From Candidatus Microgenomates bacterium (GTDB lineage Bacteria > Patescibacteriota > Microgenomatia > UBA8517), in assembly GCA_049519355.1 (NCBI GenBank), contig JBEKQV010000001.1:64688-128687 (forward strand): a stretch of DNA of 64,000 nucleotides, written 5' to 3'. Of this stretch, positions 3,798 through 54,198 are shown one piece after another. The notes under the pieces were generated by a model. That model was not told the origin of the DNA. It searched no databases and saw only the letters and a program-made list of their open reading frames with translations. Both the position numbers and the translations under genes were made by a program. Position 1 is the stretch's first letter. Every line of letters starts with the position of its first letter.

Positions 3798-3838
3798 GAT
3801 TTAACTTTAAAACATAAGCCTGTTAAAATACAGAGGCA

Positions 3839-4472: not shown

Positions 4473-6242
4473 TCACTTTTCTTTTTCCCAACGTGACTTC
4501 GGTGATGTAACCGCCCCCCATTTCTGGCCCAACCAAAGCATCGCCGTCAATAAACTATATCTAAACTCTCCGTGATAGATTTTAGAACTGGCAATAAGCT
4601 GGGGATTAATTATCGCCTTTCCAATCCTTTTTGCAGTTGCACCGTGATGATGGAAAAACTTGGCCTCAGGAACGTAGTAAAGCGGAACATTATATTTCTT
4701 AAGTCTTCTACAGTAATCAATGTCTTCAAAATACATAAAAAGCTTCCGGTTTAGGTAGCCGATTTTATTAATAACTTTTCTCGGGATCAAAAAGTTCGCC
4801 ATTGCCGCACCTTCGACGCGCACAGGTTTCGTAACTTCCGGTCTGAACATAAAATAACTGCCTTTAATATTTAAGAAATATTGTTTAAATGCTCCCCAAA
4901 TCGTCGGTAGCATAAAACACGAATCCTGAGGATCTCCATTCGGAAAAAGCAGCTGACCGGATAAGGCATACTCATTGTTAAACTTTTCGCTAGTCTTGAT
5001 CAATGTTTCAAGAGCATTATCCTTAACTTCAATATCCGAATTAAGCATAAAAAGAAGTTCTCCCCGTGCAAATTCCATCAGTCTGTTGTATCCTCCAACA
5101 AATCCTTTGTTAACTTTATTTCTAATAAACCTTACCTGAGGATATTTTTTCATAAGGGGTTCAAAATTATCATCCGTTGCATTATCAAGAACAATCACTT
5201 CATCTTTGTCCGAATTAAACCCTGATTTTTTGTTGTAAACGCTGTTAAGAAGTTGGTCAGTAAGGTCCGAGGTTTTGTAATCGGAAACCAAAATAGACAT
5301 GCGCACAGGATATGTATAATCTCCGGCCGTTATCTTTTTATAAGGCGAGGCCCCTTTCTTGCCCATTACAAAATCAATAACTCCCCGCTTCTGCGGTATT
5401 CTTCCAATGAGCAATTGTTTAATACTTTCCCTAATAACCGCGAATCTCGTCCTGAAACTTGCGTACCTAAACGTAAAATACAAACGGTTTCTTGTTAATA
5501 AATAATCGGTTTGAGGCGAGCCGATACCCATTGTTTGAGAAACTTTATGATAAATATGTGTATCCCCGCAATAAAACAACTTGCTTCCACTTCGCAGAAT
5601 TCTTTGCTGCCAATCATTATCCTCAAAGTAAGCGTATAGATCCTCGTCAAAATAGCCAATGGTCTCCAAAGTTTCGCGCCTGACCATGAAACAGCAACCG
5701 CTAATAAATCCCGTCTCTTGTATCTTATCGAATTTTCCTTTGTCAACTTGATCAATCCCCTTGTGAACGCTCCTAACATTGTTCCAGTCAAATAAGCCTC
5801 CAGCGTACCAAATCACCTTTCCTTTATCGGATGGATTATATTTATCAAGAAATTCATAACCAGGTGCAAAGTATATTTTCGGTGAAACTACTGCAGCAGT
5901 AGAATTTTCATCCAATACTTTTGCCAACTTCTTTATAAGCTGATTATCTCCGATCAAAGTATCGTTATTTATAATCGCAATATAATCAGCTCCCCAGGCA
6001 GCCGCATACCTCATTCCCAGCGTATAACTCCCCGCAAAACCCTTATCAATACCAGCCTGAAGCAAATCAAGATAGGAAATCTTCCCTTTTATATGATCGC
6101 CAATCCAGTCACCGGGAGTTTTATCAACTATAACAAACTTAAAATCTATTCCACCAACATCAAGATTTTTAACGGTTGCGAGTAACTCCAATGTATCTTT
6201 AGCCCCTCCAAAATTTACGGTAACCAACGCAATTTTTTTCAT
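4473..6242 (-). CDS. tandem two-domain GT2 family glycosyltransferase
   Basis: two successive GT-A modules (VIVLDNATDDN... and IINNDTLIGDN...) with DxD-like motifs. Confidence 0.75.
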   Translation of the reverse strand: MKKIALVTVNFGGAKDTLELLATVKNLDVGGIDFKFVIVDKTPGDWIGDHIKGKISYLDLLQAGIDKGFAGSYTLGMRYAAAWGADYIAIINNDTLIGDNQLIKKLAKVLDENSTAAVVSPKIYFAPGYEFLDKYNPSDKGKVIWYAGGLFDWNNVRSVHKGIDQVDKGKFDKIQETGFISGCCFMVRRETLETIGYFDEDLYAYFEDNDWQQRILRSGSKLFYCGDTHIYHKVSQTMGIGSPQTDYLLTRNRLYFTFRYASFRTRFAVIRESIKQLLIGRIPQKRGVIDFVMGKKGASPYKKITAGDYTYPVRMSILVSDYKTSDLTDQLLNSVYNKKSGFNSDKDEVIVLDNATDDNFEPLMKKYPQVRFIRNKVNKGFVGGYNRLMEFARGELLFMLNSDIEVKDNALETLIKTSEKFNNEYALSGQLLFPNGDPQDSCFMLPTIWGAFKQYFLNIKGSYFMFRPEVTKPVRVEGAAMANFLIPRKVINKIGYLNRKLFMYFEDIDYCRRLKKYNVPLYYVPEAKFFHHHGATAKRIGKAIINPQLIASSKIYHGEFRYSLLTAMLWLGQKWGAVTSPKSRWEKEK

Positions 6243-7235: not shown

Positions 7236-8210
7236 ATGGAAAAAAAGCAGCCGAGAAAGAAGTATAGTATCGGTGTCGCCGTAATTACCTACAAAGATTC
7301 CAGGCATCTAGAACGGTGTTTGCCGCCTCTTTTAAACTCTCCATTAAAACCGAAGGTTTTAGTCTTCAACTCAAGCTCGAATGACGGAACAGTAGAACTG
7401 GCTAAAAAACTTGGTGCCGAAGTGTTTATTATTCCAAGAACCGAAATGAATCACGGAGAAGCCAGGGAACTCTGCAGAAAGAAATTGGGTACTGACATTG
7501 TTGTAATGATGACACCCGATGCTTATGCGTCAGATAAATATATGTTAGGAAAACTCATTGAGCCAATTCTTGAAGGAAAGGCGGCAATTGCCTATGCAAG
7601 ACAAGTCGCACATGAAGGGGCTAACATTATCTCATCTTTTGGCCGAATGTTTAGTTTCCCCGATCAAAGCAATATACGCGGAATAGAAAATGCAAATAAA
7701 TACGGAGCCTATACAGCCTTCTGTTCAGATGCTTGCACAGCATACTTGAATAAGACACTTGACCAGATTGGAGGGTTCCGATGGCTTCTTTCCGGTGAGG
7801 ATGCTGTTGCCGCGTCGATGATACTCAGAAAAGGTTATAAAATTGCCTACGTTGCCGAGGCTGTTGTCAGACACTCACACAACTACAGCCCAATCAAAGA
7901 ATTCAGGAGACATTTCGATACCGGCATGTATCGGACACAGTGGCATAAAATTCTTGATTTGGGAGGGGGCGGAGAGCAAACCCGCGGAGCTTCCTACGCA
8001 CTATCACTTTTGACATATGTTATTAAAAAAGAGCCGCTGATGTTTCCAACGGCATTCGCCCAGCTTGCCATGGGGTGGTTAGGCTTTCAGTTCGGAAGAA
8101 TTTGTTACCACAGAGCACCGCTCTGGCTTTATAAAATGATAAGTCCGGCGGACTTTTTCTGGAATTCAACCGGCTATAAAGAGGGCAAATGGTTTGACCC
8201 AGCCAAATAA
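7236..8210 (+). CDS. GT2-like glycosyltransferase
   Basis: IGVAVITYKDSRHLERCLPPLLNS...VFNSSSNDGT GT-A N-terminal signature. Confidence 0.6.
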   Translation: MEKKQPRKKYSIGVAVITYKDSRHLERCLPPLLNSPLKPKVLVFNSSSNDGTVELAKKLGAEVFIIPRTEMNHGEARELCRKKLGTDIVVMMTPDAYASDKYMLGKLIEPILEGKAAIAYARQVAHEGANIISSFGRMFSFPDQSNIRGIENANKYGAYTAFCSDACTAYLNKTLDQIGGFRWLLSGEDAVAASMILRKGYKIAYVAEAVVRHSHNYSPIKEFRRHFDTGMYRTQWHKILDLGGGGEQTRGASYALSLLTYVIKKEPLMFPTAFAQLAMGWLGFQFGRICYHRAPLWLYKMISPADFFWNSTGYKEGKWFDPAK

Positions 8211-40795: not shown

Positions 40796-41548
40796 TTAAC
40801 TCTCACTTCGAACATCTTTCCTCGTAAATGTCAGGTATAAAACGAAACCAATTATCAAAATAGTTAAGACGAGACTGGTTGGACCTGCCAACCCAAGTCC
40901 GCCAAGGTTTCTCGACCGGCTCATCCAGTCTGCAAACGAGGCCCCAAGTGGACGAGTCAAAACGTAAGTCGCCCAAAAAGCAATGATGTCATTCAAACCG
41001 AAGATCCAGTAAGCCAAAGCTGGTATTGCAATTATTACGGCAAATAAGACGGTTGATGATAAATATCCCAAACCAAAAGTTGTTGCCGTTAAGTCCCCCA
41101 ATGCGGTACCCAATGCAAAGGTAGCCAAGACGGTAACCCAATAAAATATCTCGCGACGGGTAGTATAAATACTGTGGAAAGATAAGGTTTTCTCACTAAA
41201 ATACCAGGTAATAAAAACAACTACCAATGCAATCGCAAAAAAGATACTAGATACAATATACGGGACACCTAACCCGACATGCATAACATCCGCCGCCATT
41301 GTTCCGAATACAGCGACCATCGCAACCGCCAACCAGTAAACCCACGCTATATAGCGCCGTACCAGAAACTGCAATGTAAGTGCCAAAATCAGACAAACGC
41401 CTCCAAGAATAACTGCCGGGATAGGGTTAAGCAAATGAACTAGATAATCTGAAGTTGCCTCACCCATTGCGGTGGTCAGCAGTTTAATAATCCAAAAGTA
41501 AGCCGTAATTTCCGGAACTTTTATCGCCGCATTTTTTAAGCTCTTCAT
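40796..41548 (-). CDS. polytopic membrane protein (about 7 TM), function unknown
   Basis: 250 aa highly hydrophobic. Confidence 0.4.
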   Translation of the reverse strand: MKSLKNAAIKVPEITAYFWIIKLLTTAMGEATSDYLVHLLNPIPAVILGGVCLILALTLQFLVRRYIAWVYWLAVAMVAVFGTMAADVMHVGLGVPYIVSSIFFAIALVVVFITWYFSEKTLSFHSIYTTRREIFYWVTVLATFALGTALGDLTATTFGLGYLSSTVLFAVIIAIPALAYWIFGLNDIIAFWATYVLTRPLGASFADWMSRSRNLGGLGLAGPTSLVLTILIIGFVLYLTFTRKDVRSES

Positions 41549-41602
41549 TAATAAATTATATCAGTCCTACTGGAAGAAGATTTCTCAATTTACAAAGCAT
41601 AC

Positions 41603-41640
41603 CGAGCATCATTATCCAGGACCTTTTGATCCCATAACCG
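41603..41640 (+). repeat. intergenic repeat family copy D
   Basis: CGAGCATCATTATCCAGGACCTTTTGATCCCATAACCG matches consensus GCTGAGCATCA...ATCCCATAACC. Confidence 0.6.
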
Positions 41641-41654
41641 ATTATATTTTGCCC

Positions 41655-42590
41655 TTATTCTACCCTCGCATTAATCGGGCTATTTAAAACTAATAATTCA
41701 CTTGGTTTCTGAGGGTTATTGATTAAATAACGAGCCAGCTGTATTGCTCCCTTTACAATGTCATTCTTCTGGCCAATTCTCTTATGCTCATATTCAGTGT
41801 TCCCGGTTTCATATTCAGTCTGTATTTTGGGATGAACATAGTCTATGGGAACGGGAATCACCCTTAGTTTCTTTTCAAGAGCTAACATGATAGGGAAAAA
41901 GGTGGCATTAGAATAATTATCTGGTTTAACCGTTTGGGCCAATTTAGAATTTTCTTTTAATCTAAATTGGTTGGTAAAAAGACTAAGAATTTCGGGGCTG
42001 TTTTTAAATATCCTTGGACCGAAGGATAAATCCATATCCCAACTATTTTTTGGCAACAAACCAGTTAATCGTAAAACACGGCTAAATAAACGGTTTAGTT
42101 CTTTTTCACTTCTGACCTGCTGTTCTGGGTAGGTTTTAAAACTTTGAGCTGTTCTGGCTGGTATCACAATGTCTGCAGATCCGTCTATTATTGGTCTAGC
42201 GGCCTCTTTGAGATTTTCAATCATAGAAATCTTTTCGGGTTCTGTCCAGCAAATTGCTTCAACTCCAGGAAGAACTGCGGCCTCTCTAAATGTTTGCCGT
42301 CTGCTTGCACTCATTCCTTTTTCCTCTTGATCACGGACATCAACGCCAATCCCTCTTAAGAAGTTTTTAAATTCACCAGAACTTCCACCGTCTACAACTA
42401 CTAATTGATAACCTTTTTCTTTGGCTTGTTGCAGCGTCTGAATGGCTAAATCGCCTCTTAATTGATCAGAATTAATTGCAGAACCGGTTTGGGCGGCAGA
42501 CCACTCTTTGTAAAAGGTGGTAGTTACAACTGCGATGTTATGATTTTGCAGCTTTTCTTCATGGCTAGTTGATTCGATATTTTCAGCCAT
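41655..42590 (-). CDS. hypothetical protein (possibly nucleotide-sugar transferase-like fold)
   Basis: 311 aa; IAVVTTT...LVVVDGGSS segment vaguely GT-A-like; no confident family. Confidence 0.3.
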   Translation of the reverse strand: MAENIESTSHEEKLQNHNIAVVTTTFYKEWSAAQTGSAINSDQLRGDLAIQTLQQAKEKGYQLVVVDGGSSGEFKNFLRGIGVDVRDQEEKGMSASRRQTFREAAVLPGVEAICWTEPEKISMIENLKEAARPIIDGSADIVIPARTAQSFKTYPEQQVRSEKELNRLFSRVLRLTGLLPKNSWDMDLSFGPRIFKNSPEILSLFTNQFRLKENSKLAQTVKPDNYSNATFFPIMLALEKKLRVIPVPIDYVHPKIQTEYETGNTEYEHKRIGQKNDIVKGAIQLARYLINNPQKPSELLVLNSPINARVE

Positions 42591-42641
42591 AAGTAAGTTT
42601 AGGAATAAGCGAATTATATATCAAGAGTGGCAAATGGCACC

Positions 42642-42680
42642 GCCAAGCATACAGTCTGGCACCTCTAGATCCCATAATAG
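42642..42680 (+). repeat. intergenic repeat family copy F
   Basis: GCCAAGCATACAGTCTGGCACCTCTAGATCCCATAATAG. Confidence 0.55.
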
Positions 42681-42706
42681 TTAAGGCAAATAAAACACTA
42701 TTGATC

Positions 42707-43090
42707 TTAGTAAGTGAATCCGGCGTACAGGAAATATATTCCTATAAATAAAAAGGCTACCAGTGCAAACATCCCCAATCCTTTATTCTTCCTTATATTT
42801 TTGACAAAGCCGTTCATACTTTTCGGAAAGAATAAGTTTACGAGGCCGATAATCAAAATCAGCCAGGAAAACAATGTAGTAGATATGTCCAAATTTGTCA
42901 TCCAGGAGCTGTGATATAGCAAAAGGCCAATTCCCAAAAGTGTATTGATAACCCCTTTGACAAGCATGGGCATCGTGCCTTCATACATTTTAAGAACACC
43001 ATCAAAATTTTTCCGGTTTAAAAGTAAAGCTCCCGTTACTATTACCAAAATAAAGCCAAATAGTTTTGCGAGTAAAACTGAAGTTAGCAT
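42707..43090 (-). CDS. small 4-TM membrane protein
   Basis: 127-aa hydrophobic ORF. Confidence 0.3.
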   Translation of the reverse strand: MLTSVLLAKLFGFILVIVTGALLLNRKNFDGVLKMYEGTMPMLVKGVINTLLGIGLLLYHSSWMTNLDISTTLFSWLILIIGLVNLFFPKSMNGFVKNIRKNKGLGMFALVAFLFIGIYFLYAGFTY

Positions 43091-43154
43091 TTAGATATCA
43101 CCCTCTTTCGTTAATAATAGTTTTTCACTATTTGGAAGACTTTGCAAATATTTG

Positions 43155-43194
43155 GCTGAACATCACGGTCTAAGGCATTTAAGACCCATAACTG
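43155..43194 (+). repeat. intergenic repeat family copy E (followed by T-run; overlaps the last codons of the methyltransferase gene)
   Basis: GCTGAACATCACGGTCTAAGGCATTTAAGACCCATAACTG then TTTTTT. Confidence 0.55.
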
Positions 43195-43853
43195 TTTTTT
43201 AGTTGACCCAAAAAACAATAATGCCTCTTTTCGGAATCAACCCAAATTTTTCTATTCTTAAAGTTTTTAAATTCTTTTCCTACAATATCTCTGTTAAAAA
43301 GATAGTGTGGCAAGCCTTTCTCTCCACCCTCGACAGGCACATAAGTTCTTGGAGCAATCACTTTATAATTGGTCTTTTGCTTTCCATATTTTTCTATTAT
43401 TGTGTGGCTGGGATAAAACTTCCTAAACTTTCTTTTGCGAAATGTTATAAAAACAAAGCCACCTGGAATTAATACTCTTTCTATTTCCTTGATAGCTTCT
43501 CTAATTTTTTCGATAACTTCATGGTGAAGTGCTTGTGTAGAAATTACAGCATCGAAATAATCATTTTTATAAGGTAATTTTTTATAAATGTTTCCGACTT
43601 TTAGATCTGCTTTTAATTCCTCGTCTTTTAGCCATTTTTTTGTAAGATTAATACCTTCTCCCGCTATATCGATACCATAGGTGTCAAAACCATGTTTGGC
43701 AAAATAAACAACATGTCGCCCTGACCCACAACCTAAATCTAAAAGTTTTTTAACGCCGTTCTTTTTAAGAATACCCACAATTTTCACAATATCTTCTTGT
43801 GGCTCAAGAAAAACCTTTCCGTGCTCCTTAAAAACTTCGTTCCACTGTTTCAT
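43179..43853 (-). CDS. class I SAM-dependent methyltransferase
   Basis: motif I LLDLGCGSGRH, motif post-I GIDIAGEGI, IPGGFVFITF. Confidence 0.7.
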   Translation of the reverse strand: MKQWNEVFKEHGKVFLEPQEDIVKIVGILKKNGVKKLLDLGCGSGRHVVYFAKHGFDTYGIDIAGEGINLTKKWLKDEELKADLKVGNIYKKLPYKNDYFDAVISTQALHHEVIEKIREAIKEIERVLIPGGFVFITFRKRKFRKFYPSHTIIEKYGKQKTNYKVIAPRTYVPVEGGEKGLPHYLFNRDIVGKEFKNFKNRKIWVDSEKRHYCFLGQLKNSYGS

Positions 43854-43975
43854 ATTTGAAGTATACCAAACTTGAGCTGGCCCTGGTTGAAAATTTCCGA
43901 ACAGTAAACTGGTCAGAAATCATAAAACATCCTAAGTTAGCTTACCAAACAAGTCAGCAATTTTTGGATCTCTAA

Positions 43976-44623
43976 TCAATCGTAATGTTTTTCATTCCAA
44001 CTGACGTATTTGTAATCTTCAACCATTTTGATTCTGTCCACAGGTATGTCAGTTGGTATTAACACTTCAGGAAATTCAAAATCATCTAAATCTTGTTCTT
44101 CACCTGTATGATGCTCTGACAAATACTGACTAAGTGGTTTTGCGGTTTCCCAGTAAGATTTGGCCCAGCTTCTTGCTCCTTTTATCCCTTCGAGTCCGGT
44201 TATATCAGCTCCTGCTTCAGTAACAAAGGCACCATCAGCCACAATACAATCTTTGGGATCTACTTGGACCTCAAAAAGTACTTGTTTACCGGGGTTAAAC
44301 AAACTTAACCTTACTTCGTCCGGCTTACGAGGATAGGCAAATATACATTTCGTTCTATCAACACGGAAACCCATGTCCTTTCCTGTTTGGGAAAATATTT
44401 GTTCTAATTCCGGACCTTTCGTTCCCATCTGATTATCTTTAGCCCGAAAACCATTTTTATTTATAAAATCTAAACTTTCCTTATTAATATGGATATACAA
44501 AGTTACATAATTATTAAGTTTTTCTGGAGAATGATCTTCCTCCACTGGCGAACTTGTTTCGATTGGTTTAGGTTGAGAGACTTGTACATCTGATTGATCA
44601 ACCATTATTTCGGAAGATTCCAT
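43976..44623 (-). CDS. hypothetical protein
   Basis: 215-aa acidic soluble protein, no family recognised. Confidence 0.3.
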   Translation of the reverse strand: MESSEIMVDQSDVQVSQPKPIETSSPVEEDHSPEKLNNYVTLYIHINKESLDFINKNGFRAKDNQMGTKGPELEQIFSQTGKDMGFRVDRTKCIFAYPRKPDEVRLSLFNPGKQVLFEVQVDPKDCIVADGAFVTEAGADITGLEGIKGARSWAKSYWETAKPLSQYLSEHHTGEEQDLDDFEFPEVLIPTDIPVDRIKMVEDYKYVSWNEKHYD

Positions 44624-44728
44624 ACTAAAAGTATAACTTACTTATGTTTGTTTTTCTTTAAACCCTGAACCCAGTTCAAATCTCTGTCTGGGTTGTTCAA
44701 TTTGATACAGTTATTTGAGGCTAAACTT

Positions 44729-44816
44729 TAAGCTGAGCATCATGGTCTGGAACCGTTCGATCCCATAACCATCTGAAAGTAGTGTATCACCCCGAAGCTA
44801 AATGAGACAAATGAGG
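44729..44816 (+). repeat. intergenic repeat family copy A (long form)
   Basis: core GCTGAGCATCATGGTCTGGAACCGTTCGATCCCATAACCA (44732-44771) identical 40/40 to copy C; 3' extension ...GAAGCTAAATGAGACAAATGAG shared with copy B. Confidence 0.7.
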
Positions 44817-44870
44817 CAGTATCAAAGGGTGGTTAATAGTTGTTGTACAACGTATGTAGTAAAATGAGCC

Positions 44871-45560
44871 ATGACTGAAGAGAAAACTGATTTACCGAAA
44901 CTTCAGACCTCTACGAAGGAGTGGTTGGATAAATTGATGGTGCAAGCCAGGAACCAAACTGTTAACCCTGAAGAGGTTTCTGAATCGTTACGAATTTCAG
45001 ATAGGGAGGTTACATACGACAAATTTATTAATTTTTGTAACAAATTCCCCCAATGGAAAAACAAAGAAATTCAATATGTCTTTGTTAAGGGTTGGTCAAG
45101 AGAACTGGCCTTACAGGCAGATAGGATATTGCCGATAGACTCTCACTCTCAAATTAAAACTAAGCTTAATGTCTCATTTGCCCCCACTGAAATAAAATCC
45201 CATGGTGATATTGATATATGCCTAGTTAATAGAGACCTTGAAAAAGAAATAATTCCCATTTGGAGACAATACAATATTGATGAAAACAATGTTGGAAAGA
45301 CGCTACCAGACTTTTTACTCTATAAGGAACAAGATGTGGAGCAATCTTTAAGGGATTATTTTTGCGTGGTTGAGTTTGATAATAGGGATTTTATAGTTCC
45401 AAAACCAGAAGTGATCTTCCTTGCCAATACCCACAAAAACAGTGAGGGTAATTTAAGAAGACCAAATGTCTTAAGATCTTTAAATGAAAAATATGTTCTA
45501 GACTTAAACTTAATAGACCAAATTAGAAAAATACCAGGAGTTGAAAAGTTTATTAGCTGA
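44871..45560 (+). CDS. hypothetical protein
   Basis: 229-aa AT-rich ORF flanked by repeat copies A and B. Confidence 0.35.
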   Translation: MTEEKTDLPKLQTSTKEWLDKLMVQARNQTVNPEEVSESLRISDREVTYDKFINFCNKFPQWKNKEIQYVFVKGWSRELALQADRILPIDSHSQIKTKLNVSFAPTEIKSHGDIDICLVNRDLEKEIIPIWRQYNIDENNVGKTLPDFLLYKEQDVEQSLRDYFCVVEFDNRDFIVPKPEVIFLANTHKNSEGNLRRPNVLRSLNEKYVLDLNLIDQIRKIPGVEKFIS

Positions 45561-45569
45561 GGTAATAAA

Positions 45570-45656
45570 CTTGCTGAGCATCATGGTCTAGGACTTTATT
45601 ATCCCATAACCACTAAGAGCAGTGAATCATCCTGAAGCTAAATGAGACAAATGAGA
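45570..45656 (+). repeat. intergenic repeat family copy B (long form)
   Basis: GCTGAGCATCATGGTCTAGGACTTTATTATCCCATAACCA...GAAGCTAAATGAGACAAATGAG. Confidence 0.7.
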
Positions 45657-45668
45657 CATAATAAAAAG

Positions 45669-45696
45669 TTGATTCCGTCAGCTAGCAATGTATAAT
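45669..45696 (+). promoter_or_regulatory. sigma70-like promoter (TTGATT, 16-nt spacer, TATAAT) for 45707 ORF
   Basis: TTGATT 45669-45674, TATAAT 45691-45696, ATG at 45707. Confidence 0.4.
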
Positions 45697-45706
45697 TACA
45701 AAATAT

Positions 45707-45904
45707 ATGGAACATATAATTAACAGTACGAATCAGGACCCTCAAAAAGATGGTATCGAAGAAATTGAATTACAACCACCAACACTATCAGAGACTGGGG
45801 TAAAACAAGACTTGAAAAAGAAAGAACAACCTACCGAGAAAAAGCTCGAAAGTCCTCAAGGGCCTGGAGGAAGAGTTGTTAGAGGACCGTTTGGTACGTA
45901 TTAA
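45707..45904 (+). CDS. small hypothetical protein (65 aa) with Gly-rich C-terminus
   Basis: ...ESPQGPGGRVVRGPFGTY; own promoter; immediately upstream of the amidohydrolase/rSAM cluster. Confidence 0.3.
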   Translation: MEHIINSTNQDPQKDGIEEIELQPPTLSETGVKQDLKKKEQPTEKKLESPQGPGGRVVRGPFGTY

Positions 45905-45932
45905 TTCTCAAGAGAAAGCACTACTAGAATAT

Positions 45933-46766
45933 TCAGTCACCCAATCCAAGGTTGTAGATCCTATTAGCGTTTTTCCAGAAGATCGATTGTTCTAATTCTT
46001 CGCTTAAACTTAGACTTTTTACAAGATCTATATGTTTTTTAAACCCACTTTCGGTTTTAGAATCACATAGTGGCCAATCCGTACCAAAAATGACTTTGTC
46101 CGGTCTATCATCAACAGTTCTTTTTAGAACATTTACCATCTTCTCTTTTCCACCACTTGCTTTTATCACCTCATCATCTGCACACCCAGAGATTTCAAAA
46201 CAAATATTTGAAACACTCCTGGTAATATCATAACAATATTCAATCTTCGGCCAATAGTAATGGGCAATCACTATTTTTAAATTTGGAAACTTTTTAGCAA
46301 CCTCAACAATGTATTTGGGATCGTTGTAATCAAGAGGGTTAGTTATTTTAGGATCGGAAGAAATATCACCCGTGTGAATCACTACTGGATAACCCAAATT
46401 CTGAAGCAGCTCGTAATAAGGCGTACATCTCTCATCTGCAACATTATAAGGATCATGCCCAGGAAAGAGCTTTAGACCTTTTATTTTTCCTTCTTCTACT
46501 AATTTTCTATATTTATCAATCTCACTACTACCTCTTTGAATAATTTGTGGGCTCCCCAACGCAAACAATCTTTTTTGATCTTTAACAAGATTAAGTGTGT
46601 GATCCAAGTCAGCAATTTTAGGATCATTTTCTAAATTATCCGGAATAACAATTGCGTAGTCTATTCCGTTTAGATTCATCTCTTCAAGTAAAGTATCCGT
46701 AGCCTCGTCTAGACTATTCCCTTTTCCTGTATATGTTGAAACGTGAACGTGTGCGTCAATAATCAT
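45933..46766 (-). CDS. metal-dependent amidohydrolase (TIM-barrel Amidohydro_2 family)
   Basis: MIIDAHVHV... HTGD ... FGTDWP metal-ligand pattern of amidohydrolase-2 family. Confidence 0.7.
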   Translation of the reverse strand: MIIDAHVHVSTYTGKGNSLDEATDTLLEEMNLNGIDYAIVIPDNLENDPKIADLDHTLNLVKDQKRLFALGSPQIIQRGSSEIDKYRKLVEEGKIKGLKLFPGHDPYNVADERCTPYYELLQNLGYPVVIHTGDISSDPKITNPLDYNDPKYIVEVAKKFPNLKIVIAHYYWPKIEYCYDITRSVSNICFEISGCADDEVIKASGGKEKMVNVLKRTVDDRPDKVIFGTDWPLCDSKTESGFKKHIDLVKSLSLSEELEQSIFWKNANRIYNLGLGD

Positions 46767-46951
46767 GATGTCTTAAGTTTAACAGAAGATTACTAATAAT
46801 AAAACGTTTTATCTTATAAGTCCTTTATTTATGCATATTTTGAATCGGAGGTGTATAATATAGGCTGTCTGTTAGGCACGTTAACAAAGTAACAAAAAAT
46901 AATCAAAAATCCTTATAAAAACCTCATTGGAAAGGAAGGAGTAAGGAAGTC

Positions 46952-47254
46952 ATGGGTAAGCATTTTGTGCGTCGTAATGAGAATTTTACCTGTGAGCATT
47001 GTGGACAAACGGTTGTGGGTTCGGGATATACGAATCATTGCCCCACTTGTCTCTGGAGTAAGCACGTAGATGTGTATCCAGGGGATCGGGCCTCGGCCTG
47101 CAGAGGGATGATGAAACCCGTCCGTGTCGAGTTTAAAAAGGGACAGTATGTAATTGTTCACCGCTGCACTACGTGTGGCTGTGAGAAGAGAAATAAGGCT
47201 GCCCCTAACGACAACTTCGATGCGATACTCCAAGTAGCCTCACAACACAGGTAA
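46952..47254 (+). CDS. RNHCP-type Cys-rich zinc-ribbon protein
   Basis: CEHCGQ...GYTNHCPTCLWSKHVD...CTTCGC: conserved (R)NHCP.CLWSKH motif plus 8 Cys; RBS AAGGAAGGAG upstream. Confidence 0.5.
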   Translation: MGKHFVRRNENFTCEHCGQTVVGSGYTNHCPTCLWSKHVDVYPGDRASACRGMMKPVRVEFKKGQYVIVHRCTTCGCEKRNKAAPNDNFDAILQVASQHR

Positions 47255-47267
47255 AGGAGTGCAAACC

Positions 47268-48611
47268 ATGAAAATTGTGTTTGTCACCCCAATTCTTCCG
47301 TACAAATTCGAAAAGACGCCGTATGTGCCTCTAGGAATCGGATATCTTGTTGCAAGCATCCGAAAAAATTGCCCGTACGTAACAGACATTCAGTTCATAG
47401 ATGGGCAAATCTTATCCGAGCACAGCTTTTGGCGGAATATCGAACTGGTCAATACCGATGTTTTACTCATATCGGCAACCATTAGACAGATGAAAGGAGC
47501 TGCGAAAGTAGCCTCAATCGTCAAGCGTCGTAATGAAGGTGTTGTGGTTATCCTCGGAGGTGCAGGGCCAAGTGGTTTTTCTGTACTTCCACAAATGGAT
47601 GACATCGACATAATTGTGAAGGGAGAAGGAGAAGAAGTACTGCCATCAATTCTCGACGCGGTTAATAGGAAGGTGCAAATCGTGCTGCCTGAAGAAAAAG
47701 CGATCTGTCAGCATAACAACGGCAAGACTGTTATTTCTGTTTGTCTGCCGCCTGATATTAATGCAATTCCTTTGCCGGATAGAACAATATTCGACAACAC
47801 CGCCTATAGAAAAAGATGGATCGGATCAGCCGGGATGGACTCTGTAAGTATCATCGGATCGAGAGGATGTCCATTCCATTGTGTCTTTTGTGACCACTCG
47901 GTCACTGGATATGGCGTAAGGTATCGAAACGTACAAAACATTGCGGAGGAGATGATCTCTTTACAGCAAAAGTACAAGCCTAACGACATATTCTTCTATG
48001 ATGATCTTTTCACAACAAGAAAAAGCCGGGTTAGTGCACTGTGCGACCTGATCGTAAAAAGCAAAGTTCCAATCACATGGAGCGCGCAAGGAAGGGTCGA
48101 CTGCATTACGCAGGAAATGCTTGAAAGAATGCTCTCTGCAGGATGTAACGAAGTGATGTTTGGTGTTGAATCCGGCAGTGACAAGATACTCAAGTATTTC
48201 CGAAAGGGTTTCACCCATGAAAAGATTGTCCAGGCATTTGAGTTGTGCCACAAAGTAGGCATGAAAGCTGGTGCATATCTCATCATCGGTGTTCCCGGAG
48301 AAACACGACAAGATATCCTTCAGACGATTTCTCTCGTCGAGGAAATTGAACCGTCACTTCTCAATATCTCGTACCTTACCCCGTTCCCCGCCACTCAGTT
48401 ATATAAAATGACAAAAAAGTGGGTACGGAATGAAGACTACGAGAGATGGGACGACTTCCAAACTTCAGTTTATGACTTTCCTTTTGAAATGGATCCCAGG
48501 AAGTCAGAAGAGCTTATTTTGGAAGCATACCGAAGAAAGATCAATCAGGGTATGCCATATAGTGCCTACCAATTCGCTAACGCGAAAAAAACTAATGGAG
48601 GTGCAGAATGA
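47268..48611 (+). CDS. B12-binding domain radical SAM protein (class B rSAM)
   Basis: N-terminal Rossmann-like B12-binding region; radical SAM CPFHCVFC (Cx3Cx2C); RBS AAAGGAG 7 nt upstream. Confidence 0.8.
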   Translation: MKIVFVTPILPYKFEKTPYVPLGIGYLVASIRKNCPYVTDIQFIDGQILSEHSFWRNIELVNTDVLLISATIRQMKGAAKVASIVKRRNEGVVVILGGAGPSGFSVLPQMDDIDIIVKGEGEEVLPSILDAVNRKVQIVLPEEKAICQHNNGKTVISVCLPPDINAIPLPDRTIFDNTAYRKRWIGSAGMDSVSIIGSRGCPFHCVFCDHSVTGYGVRYRNVQNIAEEMISLQQKYKPNDIFFYDDLFTTRKSRVSALCDLIVKSKVPITWSAQGRVDCITQEMLERMLSAGCNEVMFGVESGSDKILKYFRKGFTHEKIVQAFELCHKVGMKAGAYLIIGVPGETRQDILQTISLVEEIEPSLLNISYLTPFPATQLYKMTKKWVRNEDYERWDDFQTSVYDFPFEMDPRKSEELILEAYRRKINQGMPYSAYQFANAKKTNGGAE

Positions 48612-49948
48612 ACTGTAAAATGGTTCAACGGCGAAAGCTTGCATACTCTGAAATACCATCGCTTTGTCAGATCGAAACGACATATGCGTGCAATCAGAAT
48701 TGCATAGCCTGCTACAACCCGGAACGTACGAAGCTGGGCGATCTCTCAAAAATGGATACCATTGTGGCATCCGTGGCCGAGAGCCAAATACCCCACGTAT
48801 ATCTTATTGGCGGCGAACCAAGCTTGCTCCGCGAAGAACGCCTGAACAAGTATGTAGAGCTTTTAAGCCAACATTCTTCCGTGACAATTGTAACCAACGG
48901 CAGAATCAAGCTCGAAGGTATCTCTCCGAAGCTCGCATGCTTTGGAATACCTATTCATGGCAGCAATGCGGAAACGCACGAACGGTTCACTCAGTCCAAG
49001 GGAGGTTTTCAAAAAACACTGGACACGATTAAGTACTATGTCAGCCAGGGATTTGATGTCAGGTGCATACCTGTTCTTACTGGTTACAACTACAACCAGA
49101 TGTACGACATCATCCGCTTGGCAGTTGATCTCGGAATGGAGTCTGTGTTTGTCGATCGATTCGAAGACGGCGGTCTCGGAGCGCAAAACTTAGCAGTGTT
49201 CCAATCTTTGGAGCCAACGCCTGAGCAGTTTCGGATAGCAGTCGATCAAATCATCGAAGCAAGACACGCCTTTACCAGCTTGGATGGAAAGGTAGGGTTT
49301 GGAACTGCCATTCCGTATTGTCTGGATCAACGCATCATCGAAGAGGGAATCCAAAGCGCATGCGGCGTAGGCACTTCATTTTGTGTCCTATCACCCACGG
49401 GCGAATTCCGAATCTGTAACCAGTCGAAAGTGGTCTACGGAAACGTCCTGGAACAGTCCGTCGAAATGCTCTGGCACAAACGGTCACTAAACGGTTTCCG
49501 GTGTTTGGGATGGGTTACGGAGCCATGTGCGTCTTGCCCGCTGCTCATGGAGTGCGCAGCCGGTTGCAAAGTGGATGTGAACCATTCCGATACGTACTGT
49601 ATAGATTATGCGGTAAGAGGGTTAAAAGGTCCAAGCCAGGAAATTTTGGATAAACTCACTTACCCGGAACCTACGGAAACCTATCCCGAACAGATGCGTC
49701 GGTTCAGAGTCAATAGGTATACCAAAATCACGACGCGTTATAAAACTCCTCTGCTTGTCACCCGTTATCAAACGGTGGAACTCGATGCAATGGCATTGGA
49801 GATGACCCAGGATATCTGCAACGGATTGGCCGTCGATGAACAAAGCCTGATCGGTCAGTTTCAAGAAAAAGTCGAAGTACCGGAAATCCGACGCTTTGTA
49901 AGCAGACTCTTTCAGGTAGACGCGCTTGATCCGAACGGTGAGGTGTAA
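48608..49948 (+). CDS. radical SAM/SPASM domain protein
   Basis: CNQNCIAC Cx3Cx2C; C-terminal SPASM-like Cys cluster (CGVGTSFC...C...CASCPLLMECAAGC); ATGA overlap with upstream gene. Confidence 0.8.
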   Translation: MNCKMVQRRKLAYSEIPSLCQIETTYACNQNCIACYNPERTKLGDLSKMDTIVASVAESQIPHVYLIGGEPSLLREERLNKYVELLSQHSSVTIVTNGRIKLEGISPKLACFGIPIHGSNAETHERFTQSKGGFQKTLDTIKYYVSQGFDVRCIPVLTGYNYNQMYDIIRLAVDLGMESVFVDRFEDGGLGAQNLAVFQSLEPTPEQFRIAVDQIIEARHAFTSLDGKVGFGTAIPYCLDQRIIEEGIQSACGVGTSFCVLSPTGEFRICNQSKVVYGNVLEQSVEMLWHKRSLNGFRCLGWVTEPCASCPLLMECAAGCKVDVNHSDTYCIDYAVRGLKGPSQEILDKLTYPEPTETYPEQMRRFRVNRYTKITTRYKTPLLVTRYQTVELDAMALEMTQDICNGLAVDEQSLIGQFQEKVEVPEIRRFVSRLFQVDALDPNGEV

Positions 49949-49949
49949 A

Positions 49950-51422
49950 ATGAGGATTCCCACCGAAATCCATTGGGAGATCACAAACGCCTGCAACCTC
50001 CGATGCAAAACGTGTATTCAGTTATCAGGGGAACCCAGAGCAGATGAGCTCAGCACGGAAACGATCAGGAAGATCATCCGTACATTTGCCCAACGCCGGG
50101 TTTCGAGGATCTGTTACACAGGAGGAGAACCGTTCAGCCGTAAGGATTTCCTGGAAATACTTTCCGCGACGGTTAACGCGGGAATTGCCGCCGAGGTCAT
50201 TACCAATGCAACCTTGCTGACGCCTAAGACGTTAGATATATTGGCGTCATATAGGGTTGCCCTTGGAATAAGCCTCGATGGTTCACGACCGGAAACTAAC
50301 GATCTAATTCGCGGGAAGGGCTCCTTCACAAAAGCGGTCCTTTCAATGAAGCAAGCAACCGCACGCAACATTCCGGTCCACGTCTATGTCACAGTAACAG
50401 AGTCCAACATCCAAGATCTTGAAAACATCGGAGCACTCGCAATTCAGAACGGCTGTTCGGGAATTCACTTCAGCGAAGTGACTTTGGCCGGACGCGCCCT
50501 AACCTCTCCCGAGGTAATCGCGCTAACGCTAAAGAATCACGACCAGCTTCCTGCGCTTTCCAGTCGGATTGCAAAGAAAATCTACAATGAAAAGCTGGAA
50601 CACCTCGATGACGGATGTTGGATTGATTCCGATTCGGCATGGTATGTGAGAAGCGATGGAGAAGTCTTTGCTTGCAGTGAGATCGGATTGAGGCGCCCAA
50701 AATCCTCACTCGGTAATATCCGATCGCTTGCCTCTCAACACACAGGCATCCGCCCGCAGCCAAAGAGTGATTTCCACAATGGTTGCAGCTACTGCGTTTG
50801 GGCAAGCATGCATGTGACTCTCATCACTAACACATGGTCCATTTGTCCGCTCACAAGCTCAGGAGGCCAAATACGGACACTCCAGGAACTTTATAATGAG
50901 CTTGATACTTTTTACCCAGACATGCGGCAGTTTTGCGCGGAATGTAAGGACCCGGACTGCATGGGATATATCTGGGTACTACCAGAGGAGTCGGACACGC
51001 TAGTCGAATCAGGCGTCCCGATCGTGCAAATCAACGACGGTCCGAATTTTATTCACTCCTTTTCAACCGCAGAGGATGGTAATATAAACGTGGAGGCTCG
51101 ATACCCAGTCTGCAAATACGCAGAAGCCCCCTGCCGCAGATGCGGAATATACAAAAAGCGACCAATGGTCTGCAGACTTTGGCCGATAGGACTGGAAACT
51201 CACGACGGGAAGGTGGTACTTGGATTACACCTTGACTGCCTCTTTGTGAGGTATCTGCAGGAACATGGTTTGGTCCCAGGTTTCAAGCGCCGCGCGCTTA
51301 ACCTGATGACCCGGTTATCGCCAGACCTGAAGGAAGCGATTGCTTCGACCTATTTTGCGGTTGACGCGATTGCTAAATTTCCAAATGGCGAAAACCGGTA
51401 CTTAATCCTTCAGGAATTCTAG
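49950..51422 (+). CDS. radical SAM/SPASM-twitch protein with extra C-terminal Cys-rich (YkgJ/UPF0153-like) domain
   Basis: CNLRCKTC Cx3Cx2C; auxiliary Cys clusters; C-terminal CKYAEAPCRRCG...RPMVCRLWP; start refined to ATG 49950, 2 nt after the previous stop. Confidence 0.75.
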   Translation: MRIPTEIHWEITNACNLRCKTCIQLSGEPRADELSTETIRKIIRTFAQRRVSRICYTGGEPFSRKDFLEILSATVNAGIAAEVITNATLLTPKTLDILASYRVALGISLDGSRPETNDLIRGKGSFTKAVLSMKQATARNIPVHVYVTVTESNIQDLENIGALAIQNGCSGIHFSEVTLAGRALTSPEVIALTLKNHDQLPALSSRIAKKIYNEKLEHLDDGCWIDSDSAWYVRSDGEVFACSEIGLRRPKSSLGNIRSLASQHTGIRPQPKSDFHNGCSYCVWASMHVTLITNTWSICPLTSSGGQIRTLQELYNELDTFYPDMRQFCAECKDPDCMGYIWVLPEESDTLVESGVPIVQINDGPNFIHSFSTAEDGNINVEARYPVCKYAEAPCRRCGIYKKRPMVCRLWPIGLETHDGKVVLGLHLDCLFVRYLQEHGLVPGFKRRALNLMTRLSPDLKEAIASTYFAVDAIAKFPNGENRYLILQEF

Positions 51423-51441
51423 AGGAAAGGAGGATGCCAAC

Positions 51442-51519
51442 ATGTCCAAGTGCAAAGCTGTGCTTGACAGCAAGAAAATCAAGAAGATCGTGGTCAAGAA
51501 GGCCCCGGCCAAGAAGTAA
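51442..51519 (+). CDS. candidate 25-aa Lys-rich small peptide
   Basis: MSKCKAVLDSKKIKKIVVKKAPAKK; RBS AGGAAAGGAGG 8 nt upstream; followed by strong terminator; not in 60-aa ORF track. Confidence 0.35.
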   Translation: MSKCKAVLDSKKIKKIVVKKAPAKK

Positions 51520-51587
51520 GCTCGGCGCATCACACAAAGCTGTGATGTTTCCCTTGCCGATAAGCTAAATTGACCCGGGTCGCGATT

Positions 51588-51631
51588 GGGTAGTACCATT
51601 TTGAACGTAAAATGGTACTACCTTTTTTTTT
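51588..51631 (+). terminator. rho-independent terminator of the rSAM operon
   Basis: perfect 14-bp stem GGTAGTACCATTTT/AAAATGGTACTACC, 6-nt loop, then TTTTTTTTT. Confidence 0.7.
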
Positions 51632-51709
51632 GGCTAAAATTGTTAATATTAAAATCTTGATCAAGTTTAATCTCCCTACATTACCCATTATTCGTCGCAT
51701 TTTTGAAGC

Positions 51710-51760
51710 CAAGCTGAGCATCATGGTCTGGAACCGTTCGATCCCATAACCACTTAAATA
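51710..51760 (+). repeat. intergenic repeat family copy C
   Basis: core 51713-51752 identical to copy A core. Confidence 0.7.
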
Positions 51761-51806
51761 GCAGCATACATCTCAAAAATACGAATTTTTGCTATATAAT
51801 ACAGTC

Positions 51807-52442
51807 ATGGAACAGGCAAGTGGGCAGAATCCAATTGATAATCTTGAAGAGTTTCTGACAAAAAGCGGTATAGAATCGACCTCGATGTCTTTTGACATTG
51901 TCTTTAAAGGTCTGAAGTACGACTGGGAAACAAATTTAACAAAAGATAAACCAAAATCATTGGACGAATTTTTAAAAACAACTATATACAATGCCGCGGC
52001 AAAGAGAATCGGTTTGCAAAAACAAGCTGGTACTGATTTGGGACAACACGGATTAGAAATACCAATTTCTCAAGAGGAAGCTCCTGACGCTTTTTATATG
52101 GAGGTTTATCACTGGGAAAATGTCAGAGGCGCGGAAAAACCAGAACCGGTTACTTCAAGAGTTGTAACACTTACCGGTATTCCTCAGCTTGAAAGCGAAA
52201 AATCTTTAGAATATCTAAAACGTCTTTCATCTGAACAAAAAGGAACTTATAGCGAAGAGGAAAAAGAAGGTAAAAAAACTATAAAATTTGAGGCTCCCAT
52301 ACAAGGTATGCCAGATTTTAAGACGGTGGTGAAAATAGAAAGTGTAAAAAACGAAAAAGGATATAACTTAATGGAAATTGCATTAGATGTAAAAATTCCC
52401 TACGAGGCTATTAGTGGCTGGCTAACTACAAAGTCAAACTAA
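51807..52442 (+). CDS. hypothetical protein
   Basis: 212 aa from ATG 51807 (track ORF starts at TTG 51789); TATAAT at 51795-51800 only 6 nt before the ATG suggests a leaderless or very short leader. Confidence 0.35.
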   Translation: MEQASGQNPIDNLEEFLTKSGIESTSMSFDIVFKGLKYDWETNLTKDKPKSLDEFLKTTIYNAAAKRIGLQKQAGTDLGQHGLEIPISQEEAPDAFYMEVYHWENVRGAEKPEPVTSRVVTLTGIPQLESEKSLEYLKRLSSEQKGTYSEEEKEGKKTIKFEAPIQGMPDFKTVVKIESVKNEKGYNLMEIALDVKIPYEAISGWLTTKSN

Positions 52443-52563
52443 GCTTTTCAAGATTATTTCTCCGGACAGCGAGCGTGTGGTACGAATGTTTGAGTTAAAA
52501 AATAGAGGTTTTGAAGGTATTTTCGGGCTAATCTGGGCTTCACGGTCACTGGGGTGCACGTGT

Positions 52564-52637
52564 TGGCTGCGGGACAGGGATTTGAACCCCGATACCAGCC
52601 TCCAGAGGGCCGTGTCCTACCGTTAGACGATCCCGCA
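52564..52637 (-). tRNA. tRNA-Gln (anticodon CTG), CCA encoded
   Basis: reverse complement TGCGGGATCGTCTAACGGTAGGACACGGCCCTCTGGAGGCTGGTATCGGGGTTCAAATCCCTGTCCCGCAGCCA; U1-A72 pair typical of bacterial tRNA-Gln; anticodon loop CTCTGGA. Confidence 0.8.
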
Positions 52638-53101: not shown

Positions 53102-53374
53102 ATGTGGTATGTTTACATTCTTTCATGCAGCGACGGAAGTTTTTACACAGGCATCACAAATAACGTTGCCAAAAGATTTAAAGACCACCTTAGTGGCCGT
53201 GGCGCCAAATATACCAAAAGTCACAAACCGGAAAAAGTAGTTTATCGGGAAGAGTTTTCATCCAAATCGGAAGCTTTAAAACGGGAAGCCGAACTCAAAA
53301 AATGGCCAAGGGCCAAAAAAGATGTTTTGATAAGATCAAGATTTTCTACCACCAAAAAGACGCCTATCGAGTAA
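53102..53374 (+). CDS. GIY-YIG nuclease superfamily protein (UPF0213-like)
   Basis: WYVYILSCSDGSFYTGITNNVAKRFKDH...KYT...RE..LKKW GIY-YIG motifs. Confidence 0.75.
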   Translation: MWYVYILSCSDGSFYTGITNNVAKRFKDHLSGRGAKYTKSHKPEKVVYREEFSSKSEALKREAELKKWPRAKKDVLIRSRFSTTKKTPIE

Positions 53375-54198
53375 AGTGCGCCCATGACCACGTCGATAAA
53401 ATAGTGTTCACCAAGGTATATCACCGCAAACCAAACCCCCAGCATATAAGGCAGAAAAATAATTCCGGCCTTTTTACTCCATTTGTAAAGGTATAAGAAA
53501 ATTATGGTCGGAAATGCTGCGTGAAGAGACGGCATAGCCGCAACAGCGTCTCCGCCAGCCAGAGACAGAATCGACGGCAACGTTATATTAGATTGAAAAA
53601 AATGTGACATGACAACCCCGGTAACTTCCTTTATGGGAGGGATATAACCCAAACCGCTGGCCATCCACGGAGGCATTGCCGGGAAAATAATATAAGTAAC
53701 AAATGCTGCATAGGAAACCCCTAAAATTCCGAAAGTATATTTTTTGAAAAATTTTCTGTCCTTTAGCCAAAAGTAATATCCGACAATCATCGGAGCTACA
53801 AAATGGCAAATATAAAGAATAACGGCAACGTAGTCATACCACATAAGACGGTTGGGATTATAAAGCAAGGCCTGAAGTTGAACTGTCGGGATGAAACCAA
53901 AAATAAATTTATCTATATTAATCATTGGAAAAATATGGGCATGATTACTAATAAAAGGAACAAGTCCCCTTAAAAATTCATATCCCAGATAAAAAAGAAT
54001 AAACGGCACCCAGTCTTTGAGAAAAAGCCAGGCTCTTCCTATAAAAACTGTACCGATTAACCCAAAAACAAAAAACTGATCGGGGGAAAACCAAATCCGA
54101 TGAGAGATCATATAGACACATACAATCAAAATATAAATAAGCGTTACTATCTTTACCGCTCCGAAGCCGCGGATTTTCTTCAAAAGATTTTTAACCAA
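53242..54198 (-). CDS. PAP2-like (PAP2_3/AUR1-like) polytopic membrane protein
   Basis: PSLHAAF and GEHYFIDVVMGA resemble PAP2 motifs 2 and 3; about 8 TM; 3' end overlaps GIY-YIG ORF by 133 bp. Confidence 0.5.
   Translation of the reverse strand: MVKNLLKKIRGFGAVKIVTLIYILIVCVYMISHRIWFSPDQFFVFGLIGTVFIGRAWLFLKDWVPFILFYLGYEFLRGLVPFISNHAHIFPMINIDKFIFGFIPTVQLQALLYNPNRLMWYDYVAVILYICHFVAPMIVGYYFWLKDRKFFKKYTFGILGVSYAAFVTYIIFPAMPPWMASGLGYIPPIKEVTGVVMSHFFQSNITLPSILSLAGGDAVAAMPSLHAAFPTIIFLYLYKWSKKAGIIFLPYMLGVWFAVIYLGEHYFIDVVMGALYSIGVFLVVENLDLIKTSFLALGHFLSSASRFKASDLDENSSR

Follow-up and report, generated by a model that had tools for sequence, protein, structure and literature searches.

The 64,000-nucleotide stretch of DNA analysed here (contig JBEKQV010000001.1 of a Candidatus Microgenomates bacterium, positions 64,688 to 128,687; 'the window') is a segment of bacterial chromosome, encoding SecA, Lon, class I LysRS and SerRS, in which a short repeat occurs six times in a single orientation. 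We favour the reading, which we hold with about as much doubt as conviction, that these six repeats are the cassette-boundary recombination sites of an integron-like chromosomal array, with a site that is unrelated to attC and a recombinase that would be encoded elsewhere. We do so because each unit has one co-oriented site attached at its 3′ side, because the content of the arrays turns over, and because homology breaks at a motif beside the hairpin of the site. The observation itself is real and highly significant, and the element is a conserved, lineage-specific family.

The whole window was searched, unfiltered, with a covariance model of the repeat (R1). All six co-oriented copies that an earlier note on this DNA had listed were recovered, with scores of 36.5–62.8 bits (Table 1), and the next best match anywhere in the 64 kb reached 7 bits. 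The remaining 54 kb held no copy, as had also been claimed, and no solo boxes or attI-like site were seen in the window above chance. Searching the window for the 11-mer of the 5′ box with one mismatch or fewer gave 4 matches against 0.43 expected. All copies lie between genes or reach no further into one than its last codons. Two cores had been described as identical at 40 of 40 positions; copies D and F indeed match at 42 of 42 (44 nt by eye). The 3′ extension said to be common to two copies is found in D and E, which have a further 62 nt in common at 79% identity, and F retains just 7 nt of the long-form linker.

Some details had to be revised. The 5′ box, said to be carried by all copies, is exact in three of them; the copies listed at 43155 (C) and 41603 (A) have one and two mismatches, respectively, and that at 42642 (B) is degenerate and lacks 1 nt. 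Between the two boxes lie 17 nt rather than ∼15 nt. That nearly every spacer between 41.5 and 51.8 kb holds a copy was overstated: a copy lies in five of the six spacers of 41.5–45.7 kb and in none of the internal spacers of the 6.1-kb block at 45.6–51.7 kb. The island of radical-SAM genes is bracketed, as proposed, by the copies at 45571 and 51711 (47.8% GC against about 40%). Copy C does overlap the last codons of the methyltransferase gene, but the T-run that follows it lies within the methyltransferase coding sequence and is therefore not a terminator. The claim of novelty stands, with no match in Rfam 15 or in the searchable literature. Of the three roles that had been suggested, a cassette boundary is the one we favour, a repetitive extragenic palindromic (REP) or miniature inverted-repeat transposable element (MITE) is disfavoured (see below), and a regulatory RNA, if any, would be on the opposite strand.

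It is the minus strand of the window that can fold. On it, an imperfect hairpin containing a bulged A precedes the near-invariant ATGCTCAGC box, and the consensus of the site is 5′-(G)GTTATGGGATC-GWAN-GGTCCTAGAC(C)-RTGATGCTCAGC-3′. The stem of 10–11 bp is formed by (G)GUU-A-UGGGAUC and GGUCCUAGAC(C), which enclose a GNRA-like loop; the bulged A is near-invariant, and ∼4 variable bases separate the hairpin from the box, giving a site of ∼42 bp. The box sits 3′ of the hairpin and is the best-conserved block in an alignment of 60 copies. Read on this strand, the 3′ box and the centre of the earlier description make up the hairpin and the 5′ box becomes an unpaired tail. The two boxes had been thought to pair with each other around a variable loop, but they are not complementary, and single-sequence folds of the plus strand are no better than those of shuffled sequence. 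On the minus strand two overlapping folds fit, either the 10–11-bp hairpin with its bulged A or a pairing of GUUAUG with CRUGAU. In both folds 88–94% of cells pair, with many G.U pairs that would be C.A mismatches on the plus strand. The mean minimum free energy as RNA was −8.2 kcal/mol for the sense (minus) strand, −4.4 kcal/mol for the plus strand and −5.5 kcal/mol for shuffles, and the sense strand was the more stable in 33 of 37 copies. Covariation within the hairpin is weak; the minus-strand hairpin is therefore plausible rather than proven.

The family extends well beyond this genome. A scan of JGI metagenomes with a looser pattern returned 39 stretches, 34 of which were homologous by eye, with conservation reaching well beyond the bases specified by the pattern; the other five have only the pattern-forced bases in common. 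In the same contigs R1 found ∼25 additional, more divergent copies. About 55 further copies come from some 30 contigs of peat, sediment and groundwater, and copies from different genomes are 85–95% identical over ∼40 nt. The strict pattern gave 10 matches in the GTDB representative genomes, in unrelated taxa and at about the number that we estimate for chance; the lineage is therefore absent from the GTDB representative set. A blastn search of a phage collection with the region gave no match and the motif was absent from IMG/VR viral contigs, and a phage origin was rejected on these grounds.

Where a locus contains at least two copies (15 loci, 46 copies in all), not a single conflict of orientation was found, an outcome with a chance probability of 2^−31. 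Copies are spaced 0.5–1.7 kb apart; one contig (L058) has six in 7 kb, in nearly every spacer among small co-directional genes. With the minus-strand reading taken as sense, the gene upstream runs in the direction of the site in 45 of 61 cases; here the site mostly begins 0–30 nt past the stop codon and in some instances overlaps it. For the gene downstream this is so in 44 of 56 cases, with a start 2 to >100 nt beyond the site. In the window, copies A–C follow this co-directional pattern, D lies between divergent genes, and E and F are antisense to both neighbours (F as called from the annotated genes). An antisense orientation to a neighbouring gene is seen for three of the six copies in the window and for about a quarter of copies overall. 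The cargo of the other arrays includes AbiEii, HEPN/AbiV, HEPN RiboL-PSP and NUDIX proteins, methyltransferases and hypothetical proteins.

Four contigs with 70–78% nucleotide identity to the window in the flanks (L056, L059, L026 and L024) have arrays at the same place, from the Lon-DAGK-LUD...DUF347 side to the tRNA-Gln side, and the genes between their copies are unrelated to those of the window. The window and L059 have a positionally orthologous copy beside DUF347, immediately past which their homology ends. The array of L026 is closely followed by a tRNA, with homology to the window returning after another ∼2.3 kb. Two pairs of near-identical contigs place the breaks within the site. Between L035 and L036, identity is 100% over >330 nt, through CCTGAGCATCA, and is lost at the base that follows, inside the site. 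The sequences of L039 and L058 left of G|CTGAGCA are unrelated, and those right of it match at 98%. In each pair the hairpin remains with its upstream gene (in the sense reading), and the breaks thus bracket the exchange point to the 11-nt box. A coincidence of copies with synteny breakpoints, which had been proposed as a check, is therefore seen in these two pairs, where identity is lost or gained at the box. We infer that site-specific recombination made the breaks and, likewise, where the crossover falls and which DNA strand is used.

The cargo genes also occur in other settings. In L061, two copies enclose a distant homologue of the 229-aa cassette protein (33% identity), there in the sense orientation. 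Homologues of the GT2-like cassette gene (55–66% identity, three other contigs) lie in ordinary gene clusters with no copies, and mobility of this gene was rejected for that reason; the cargo genes as such are thus not bound to the element. A 77%-identical homologue of the GT2-like protein (P0124) is encoded near another B12-binding radical-SAM gene.

In the scheme that we favour, each cassette would start with a short 5′ leader, continue with at least one gene and end in the hairpin, placed directly past the last stop codon. A recombinase encoded elsewhere, site-specific and probably strand-specific, would cross over in or next to the box, and the genes between sites would thereby be inserted, lost, or exchanged between arrays and genomes. 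The sites would remain direct repeats, so that every copy would keep one orientation whatever the orientation of the cargo gene.

Several observations weigh against this scheme. No tyrosine, serine or HUH-nuclease-type recombinase and no transposase was found among the 40 scanned open reading frames (ORFs) of the window, a set in which those of <150 aa are partly represented, and no recombinase consistently adjoins the arrays in other loci. Covariation in the hairpin was not significant against shuffles, with double changes at just one or two pairs. The ends of the site in the 60-copy alignment are GTTATGG...GACC and the tail TGATGCTCAGC, and the attC core pair is not among them. Cassette 5 holds six genes in mixed orientation over 6.1 kb, and the segment beside tRNA-Gln has no bounding copy on its right. 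In ∼20 contigs of this population the array is identical, with no insertion or excision polymorphism, so that either array turnover is slow or the population is clonal. Finally, both breakpoints are equally explicable by RecA-dependent recombination between the ∼40-nt repeats.

That last point belongs to a different explanation, namely that the repeat is a passive substrate, offering micro-homology for RecA-dependent recombination after DNA uptake in the manner of the 'minimal mobile elements' of Neisseria, with no dedicated recombinase. The high identity of copies across genomes, the lack of a recombinase found nearby and the stability of the array within the population all fit such a substrate, from which breakpoints at the repeat would be equally expected. 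It leaves unexplained, however, why a 42-nt hairpin and invariant box should be conserved between genomes that are ∼70% identical elsewhere, why copies are placed so precisely past stop codons, and why co-orientation is absolute. In addition, 40 nt at ∼90% identity is a poor substrate for RecA. We consider this explanation decidedly unlikely.

A large serine recombinase is encoded between copies in L039 and L031, together with terminase and ParB-methylase genes, and lies 174 nt from a copy in L031. An att site of such an enzyme would be expected to adjoin the recombinase gene, but five loci with homologues of 73–88% identity have no copy within 8 kb on either side. It was therefore rejected as the enzyme of the array, and the serine recombinase module is a separate mobile element sharing the hotspot. 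These genes could also be taken to mean that integrative elements (such as that in L031/L039) inserted one after another at a tRNA-adjacent hotspot and left the copies behind as att-site scars. The array does adjoin tRNA-Gln, and tRNA-like T-arm fragments abut the box in four contigs (described below). Yet most cassettes consist of one small gene without any trace of an integrase, the site does not derive from the adjacent tRNA-Gln, and ARAGORN and Rfam find no tRNA at the fragments; for the serine recombinase, the homologue loci without a site largely refute the idea. We regard serial integration as extremely improbable.

The module with the large serine recombinase is conserved in bacteria of the candidate phyla radiation (CPR) and was seen in L039 (1520–6100), L031 (709–3507) and L062–L066. 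Its other genes encode a ParB-N6/N4 DNA methylase, a small terminase-like helix-turn-helix (HTH) protein, a large terminase, and an HTH or tRNA_anti-like OB-fold protein. The recombinase family has >8000 homologues at E<1e-40 and often lies in the Lon/DAGK neighbourhood of the arrays; the module may be a very widespread CPR prophage or phage-derived island.

Among the scanned proteins of the window and the loci, which are partial genomes, there was no match to Y1_Tnp. A single transposase-type HTH match, beside a terminase, was read as the small terminase subunit. The window, L026, L029, L056 and L059 all have a conserved gene for a stand-alone GIY-YIG nuclease close to the variable region, and in L063 the gene is found beside DAGK. 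No site exists in L063, and the nuclease was rejected as a partner on that account; its association with the array seems to be one of synteny only.

About a third to half of the copies have an extension of ∼100 nt upstream of the hairpin (minus strand). This long form, to which copies D and E belong, holds a duplicated TGTCTCATT as well as GTGATACACT, the latter ending 11 nt before GTTATGG and being nearly invariant (11 of 12 sequences, with 11 long-form copies from other contigs). Judged by its conservation, the extension may be a promoter (TTGTCT, 18 nt, TGATACACT) that fires through the site, and in the array this promoter-like module would point through the site into the next cassette. A scan with a consensus sigma-70 promoter showed no enrichment, and the long-form module scored just under its threshold.

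The element might instead act at the RNA level. On the minus-strand transcript, the hairpin and a single-stranded GCUCAGC tail would stabilise, process or regulate the mRNAs of accessory genes, as a 3′ end protector after cistrons and as a 5′ leader behind the long-form promoter, and such a role could coexist with one in DNA. Approximately 75% of copies are sense to the flanking genes and begin 0–30 nt past a stop codon, and the −10-like TGATACACT of the long form would place the start of transcription just before the hairpin. The extent of pairing on the minus strand with its many G.U pairs, the greater stability of the sense strand, and the GNRA-like loops all point the same way. Against this, the antisense copies are conserved equally well, copies are confined to variable regions, sequence conservation goes far beyond the needs of a hairpin in which covariation is not significant, the distance to the next start codon is not fixed, and no Rfam family matches. 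An RNA role alone also leaves the homology breaks at the box unexplained, and we think it unlikely.

A selfish intergenic repeat of the REP or MITE kind, spread by a transposase acting in trans and with no role in moving genes, would likewise be short, hairpin-forming and strictly placed between genes. It could have modular short and long forms, and the finding that a 137-nt long form is 94% identical between L022 and L028, contigs that are unlike on both sides of it, would suit such an element. The distribution and the structure of the copies speak against it. REP elements are dispersed genome-wide, often as inverted pairs, whereas there is no window copy outside the variable block, no inverted pair among the 60 copies and no orientation conflict in any locus. 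The site also lacks the GTAG head of REP elements (neither GTAG nor CTAC is present in the 60-copy alignment), and no transposase or RAYT, the usual companion of REP elements, was found among the ORFs of the scanned loci. MITEs have terminal inverted repeats and target-site duplications; the site is asymmetric, with a GTTATGG end and a GCTCAGC end, and has no duplicated target. We therefore give a selfish repeat little credence.

No known RNA family accounts for the site. Rfam 15 gave nothing at the gathering score and nothing overlapping a copy at E-values of up to 10, and this possibility was rejected. The earlier note had allowed for the motif being a fragment of a known tRNA; ARAGORN and Rfam identified only the two true tRNAs in the window, and the site is dissimilar to tRNA-Gln. 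A tRNA gene or att fragment was rejected, since the T-loop-like GTTCGATCC has no matching stem. Antitermination of the rRNA boxB-boxA type was rejected because the 16S leader of L030, an element-carrying relative, has nothing like the box. The 16S rRNA gene of L030, with 1389 nt aligned to the 1533-position bacterial model, and a fragment of a group II intron (D1–D4) immediately downstream of it occupy 2319–4041.

In L028, L035, L036 and L040, the terminal copy has, right against its box, a fragment resembling the T-loop and acceptor of a tRNA (TTCGAATCCGTGTTGCCTGA; Table 1). Neither ARAGORN nor Rfam calls a tRNA there, and the fragment could be a remnant of an ancestral tRNA-end integration site. 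A noncoding region of ∼190 nt with 80% conservation is present in L021 (7830–8018) and L039 (7486–7670), both given with the plus strand of the repeat from left to right (L039 as stored, L021 as the reverse complement of the stored locus). It holds a GGACAC-GGTCT-GTGTCC hairpin directly flanking the box side of the copy, is shorter in L054 and L022, and has no Rfam match. Possibly it is the third of the optional modules, or else a small RNA that has nothing to do with the element.

Table 1. Copies of the repeat, segments between them and neighbouring features. Positions refer to the window (position 1 is its first letter) unless a locus is named; R1 scores are from the covariance model search.
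Feature	Position	Strand	Remarks
Copy A, short form	41599..41640	-	R1 50.1 bits; boundary copy adjoining start of DUF347 gene
Copy B, short form	42640..42680	-	R1 36.5 bits; most degenerate, 1-nt deletion before box
Copy C, short form	43153..43194	-	R1 50.3 bits; overlaps methyltransferase stop and last 4-5 codons
Copy D core	44730..44771	-	R1 62.8 bits; hairpin 44770 to 44744, box TGATGCTCAGC 44742 to 44732
Copy D long-form extension	44772..44835	-	Promoter-like module; reads towards core and 215-aa gene
Copy D -35-like TTGTCT	44810-44805	-	Extended -10-like TGATACACT at 44789-44781
Copy E core	45571..45612	-	R1 62.4 bits; antisense to both flanking + strand genes
Copy E long-form extension	45613..45674	-	79% identity to copy D extension
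Copy F core	51711..51752	-	R1 62.8 bits; array copy nearest tRNA-Gln
Cassette 1	41641..42639	-	GT2-like 311-aa gene; 38.4% GC
Cassette 2	42681..43152	-	127-aa membrane protein; 34.5% GC
Cassette 3	43195..44729	-	215-aa hypothetical and 224-aa SAM methyltransferase; 35.0% GC
Methyltransferase gene	43179-43853	-	From ORF list
Cassette 4	44772..45570	+	229-aa hypothetical, inverted relative to array; 35.3% GC
Cassette 5	45613..51710	.	6.1-kb block: 65-aa ORF, amidohydrolase, RNHCP protein, three radical-SAM genes
Last variable segment	51753..52456	+	211-aa hypothetical; synteny with L045 and L056 resumes at ~52457
DUF347 gene, conserved left boundary	40796..41548	-	Pfam; homology to L059
tRNA-Gln(CTG), conserved right boundary	52564..52637	-	tRNA detection; neighbourhood conserved in L045 and L056
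GIY-YIG stand-alone nuclease, 90 aa	53102-53374	+	Overlaps 5′ extension of ORF 53242-54198 (-)
tRNA-like fragment (TTCGAATCCGTGTTGCCTGA)	L028 ~1040-1061; L035 ~1405-1430; L036 ~7385-7409; L040 ~4965-4996		Repeat + strand left to right; L028 and L036 as stored, L035 and L040 reverse complement of stored locus

The segments between the copies differ in composition from their surroundings. Cassettes 1–4 have 34.5–38.4% GC, the radical-SAM part of cassette 5 has 47.8% and the flanks have 40–41%. The proteins encoded downstream of copies D, E and F have no relationship to one another, and the possibility that the copies are paralogous upstream regions was rejected on that basis. The foreign block within cassette 5 (46952–51632, 47.8% GC) encodes an RNHCP-domain protein, a B12-binding radical-SAM protein, a SPASM radical-SAM protein and a third radical-SAM protein, and is closed at ∼51590–51632 by a strong terminator-like hairpin with a T-run.

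Many peat metagenomes contain identical contigs. In one peat contig from the same population (L074, 638–1285), the 215-aa gene of cassette 3 is split into calls of 73 aa and 132 aa. This is likely to be a frameshift or pseudogene, and it is the sole difference in the array that was seen in the population.

Two further features were noted. A TATAAT-like hexamer lies just 6–8 nt before the ATG of several genes within and next to the array, among them the 211-aa gene (51790–51810) and DUF347 (41549–41562), a hint that the transcripts have little or no leader. The 107 nt downstream of tRNA-Gln (52457–52563) are conserved in L045 and L056 with 79–82% identity, end exactly where the variable region starts, and have no Rfam match; this stretch is a candidate for an attI-like platform or a small RNA.

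Integrons, whose defining parts are IntI and attC, are the textbook means of storing and reshuffling genes. If the repeats are indeed cassette boundaries, the same layout would have arisen with an unrelated site in the ultra-small, cell-dependent CPR bacteria, and the architecture would have evolved more than once. The array would then imply a recombinase still to be discovered, acting on a compact 42-bp substrate, that would interest genome engineers, and would give a handle on how CPR bacteria acquire genes for defence and surface modification. The R1 covariance model is a ready-made probe for such arrays in metagenomes, to which attC-based tools are blind. Should the element act at the RNA level only, it would still be a new and strongly conserved CPR-specific motif tied to accessory genes.

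Several known systems have some of these properties. The pneumococcal BOX elements, the NIME/dRS3 repeats of Neisseria and the Correia elements are also short intergenic hairpin repeats with optional modules, some of which include promoters. In contrast to the element described here, which is array-confined and co-oriented, they are dispersed, occur in both orientations and do not delimit exchangeable genes. The substrates of HUH enzymes (the ends of IS200/IS605, REP/RAYT and relaxase nic sites) are similar in having a hairpin followed by a conserved single-stranded motif, and the strict strand polarity of the copies is a further point of likeness; they differ in that no Y1/HUH gene was seen here. 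IS200/IS605 elements have two hairpins per element and insert at a tetranucleotide target.

The differences from integrons lie in the site and the enzyme. The attC site has an RYYYAAC/GTTRRRY pair with AAC/GTT at the inner stem, whereas here there is no RYYYAAC partner and GTT is at the outer 5′ end of the stem. attC sites are imperfect palindromes of ∼55–141 nt, with L″/L′ boxes, an unpaired central spacer and extrahelical bases. The present site resembles them in principle through its 10–11-bp hairpin with one near-invariant bulged A, but it is 42 nt long, its box architecture differs, and its conserved box is an unpaired tail beyond the hairpin. No intI or attI that would make a complete integron was identified in the window, and some sites here, unlike those of integrons, carry their own promoter-like module. 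We found no report of integrons in CPR bacteria in the integron literature checked, and neither this sequence nor integron-like arrays of CPR bacteria turned up in the searchable literature.

The similarities lie in the organisation. As in integron arrays and in CALINs (clusters of attC sites without an integrase), there is one co-oriented recombination-type site per cassette, directly past the stop codon of the cassette ORF and sometimes overlapping it. The cassettes are 0.5–1.7 kb, mostly co-directional with occasional inverted ones, and have accessory, defence and hypothetical cargo of deviant GC content. The chromosomal locus is fixed and its contents differ between related genomes; here the co-oriented sites follow ORFs and the content varies between related species, not within the population. 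The site sequences are highly similar within the lineage, like the Vibrio cholerae repeats of Vibrio, and an imperfect hairpin with an extrahelical base is followed by a short motif at the apparent exchange point. More tentatively, and with clearly more doubt than confidence, we suggest that this is an independently evolved CPR analogue of the integron, a platform for capturing genes in which a 42-nt hairpin-plus-box site unrelated to attC would end each cassette and be used by a non-IntI enzyme (perhaps a strand-specific one of the HUH type or one otherwise unrecognised) and some sites would be portable promoters. With the R″/R′ motifs, the length and IntI all absent, the array is not an integron in the strict sense, though it appears to work like one.

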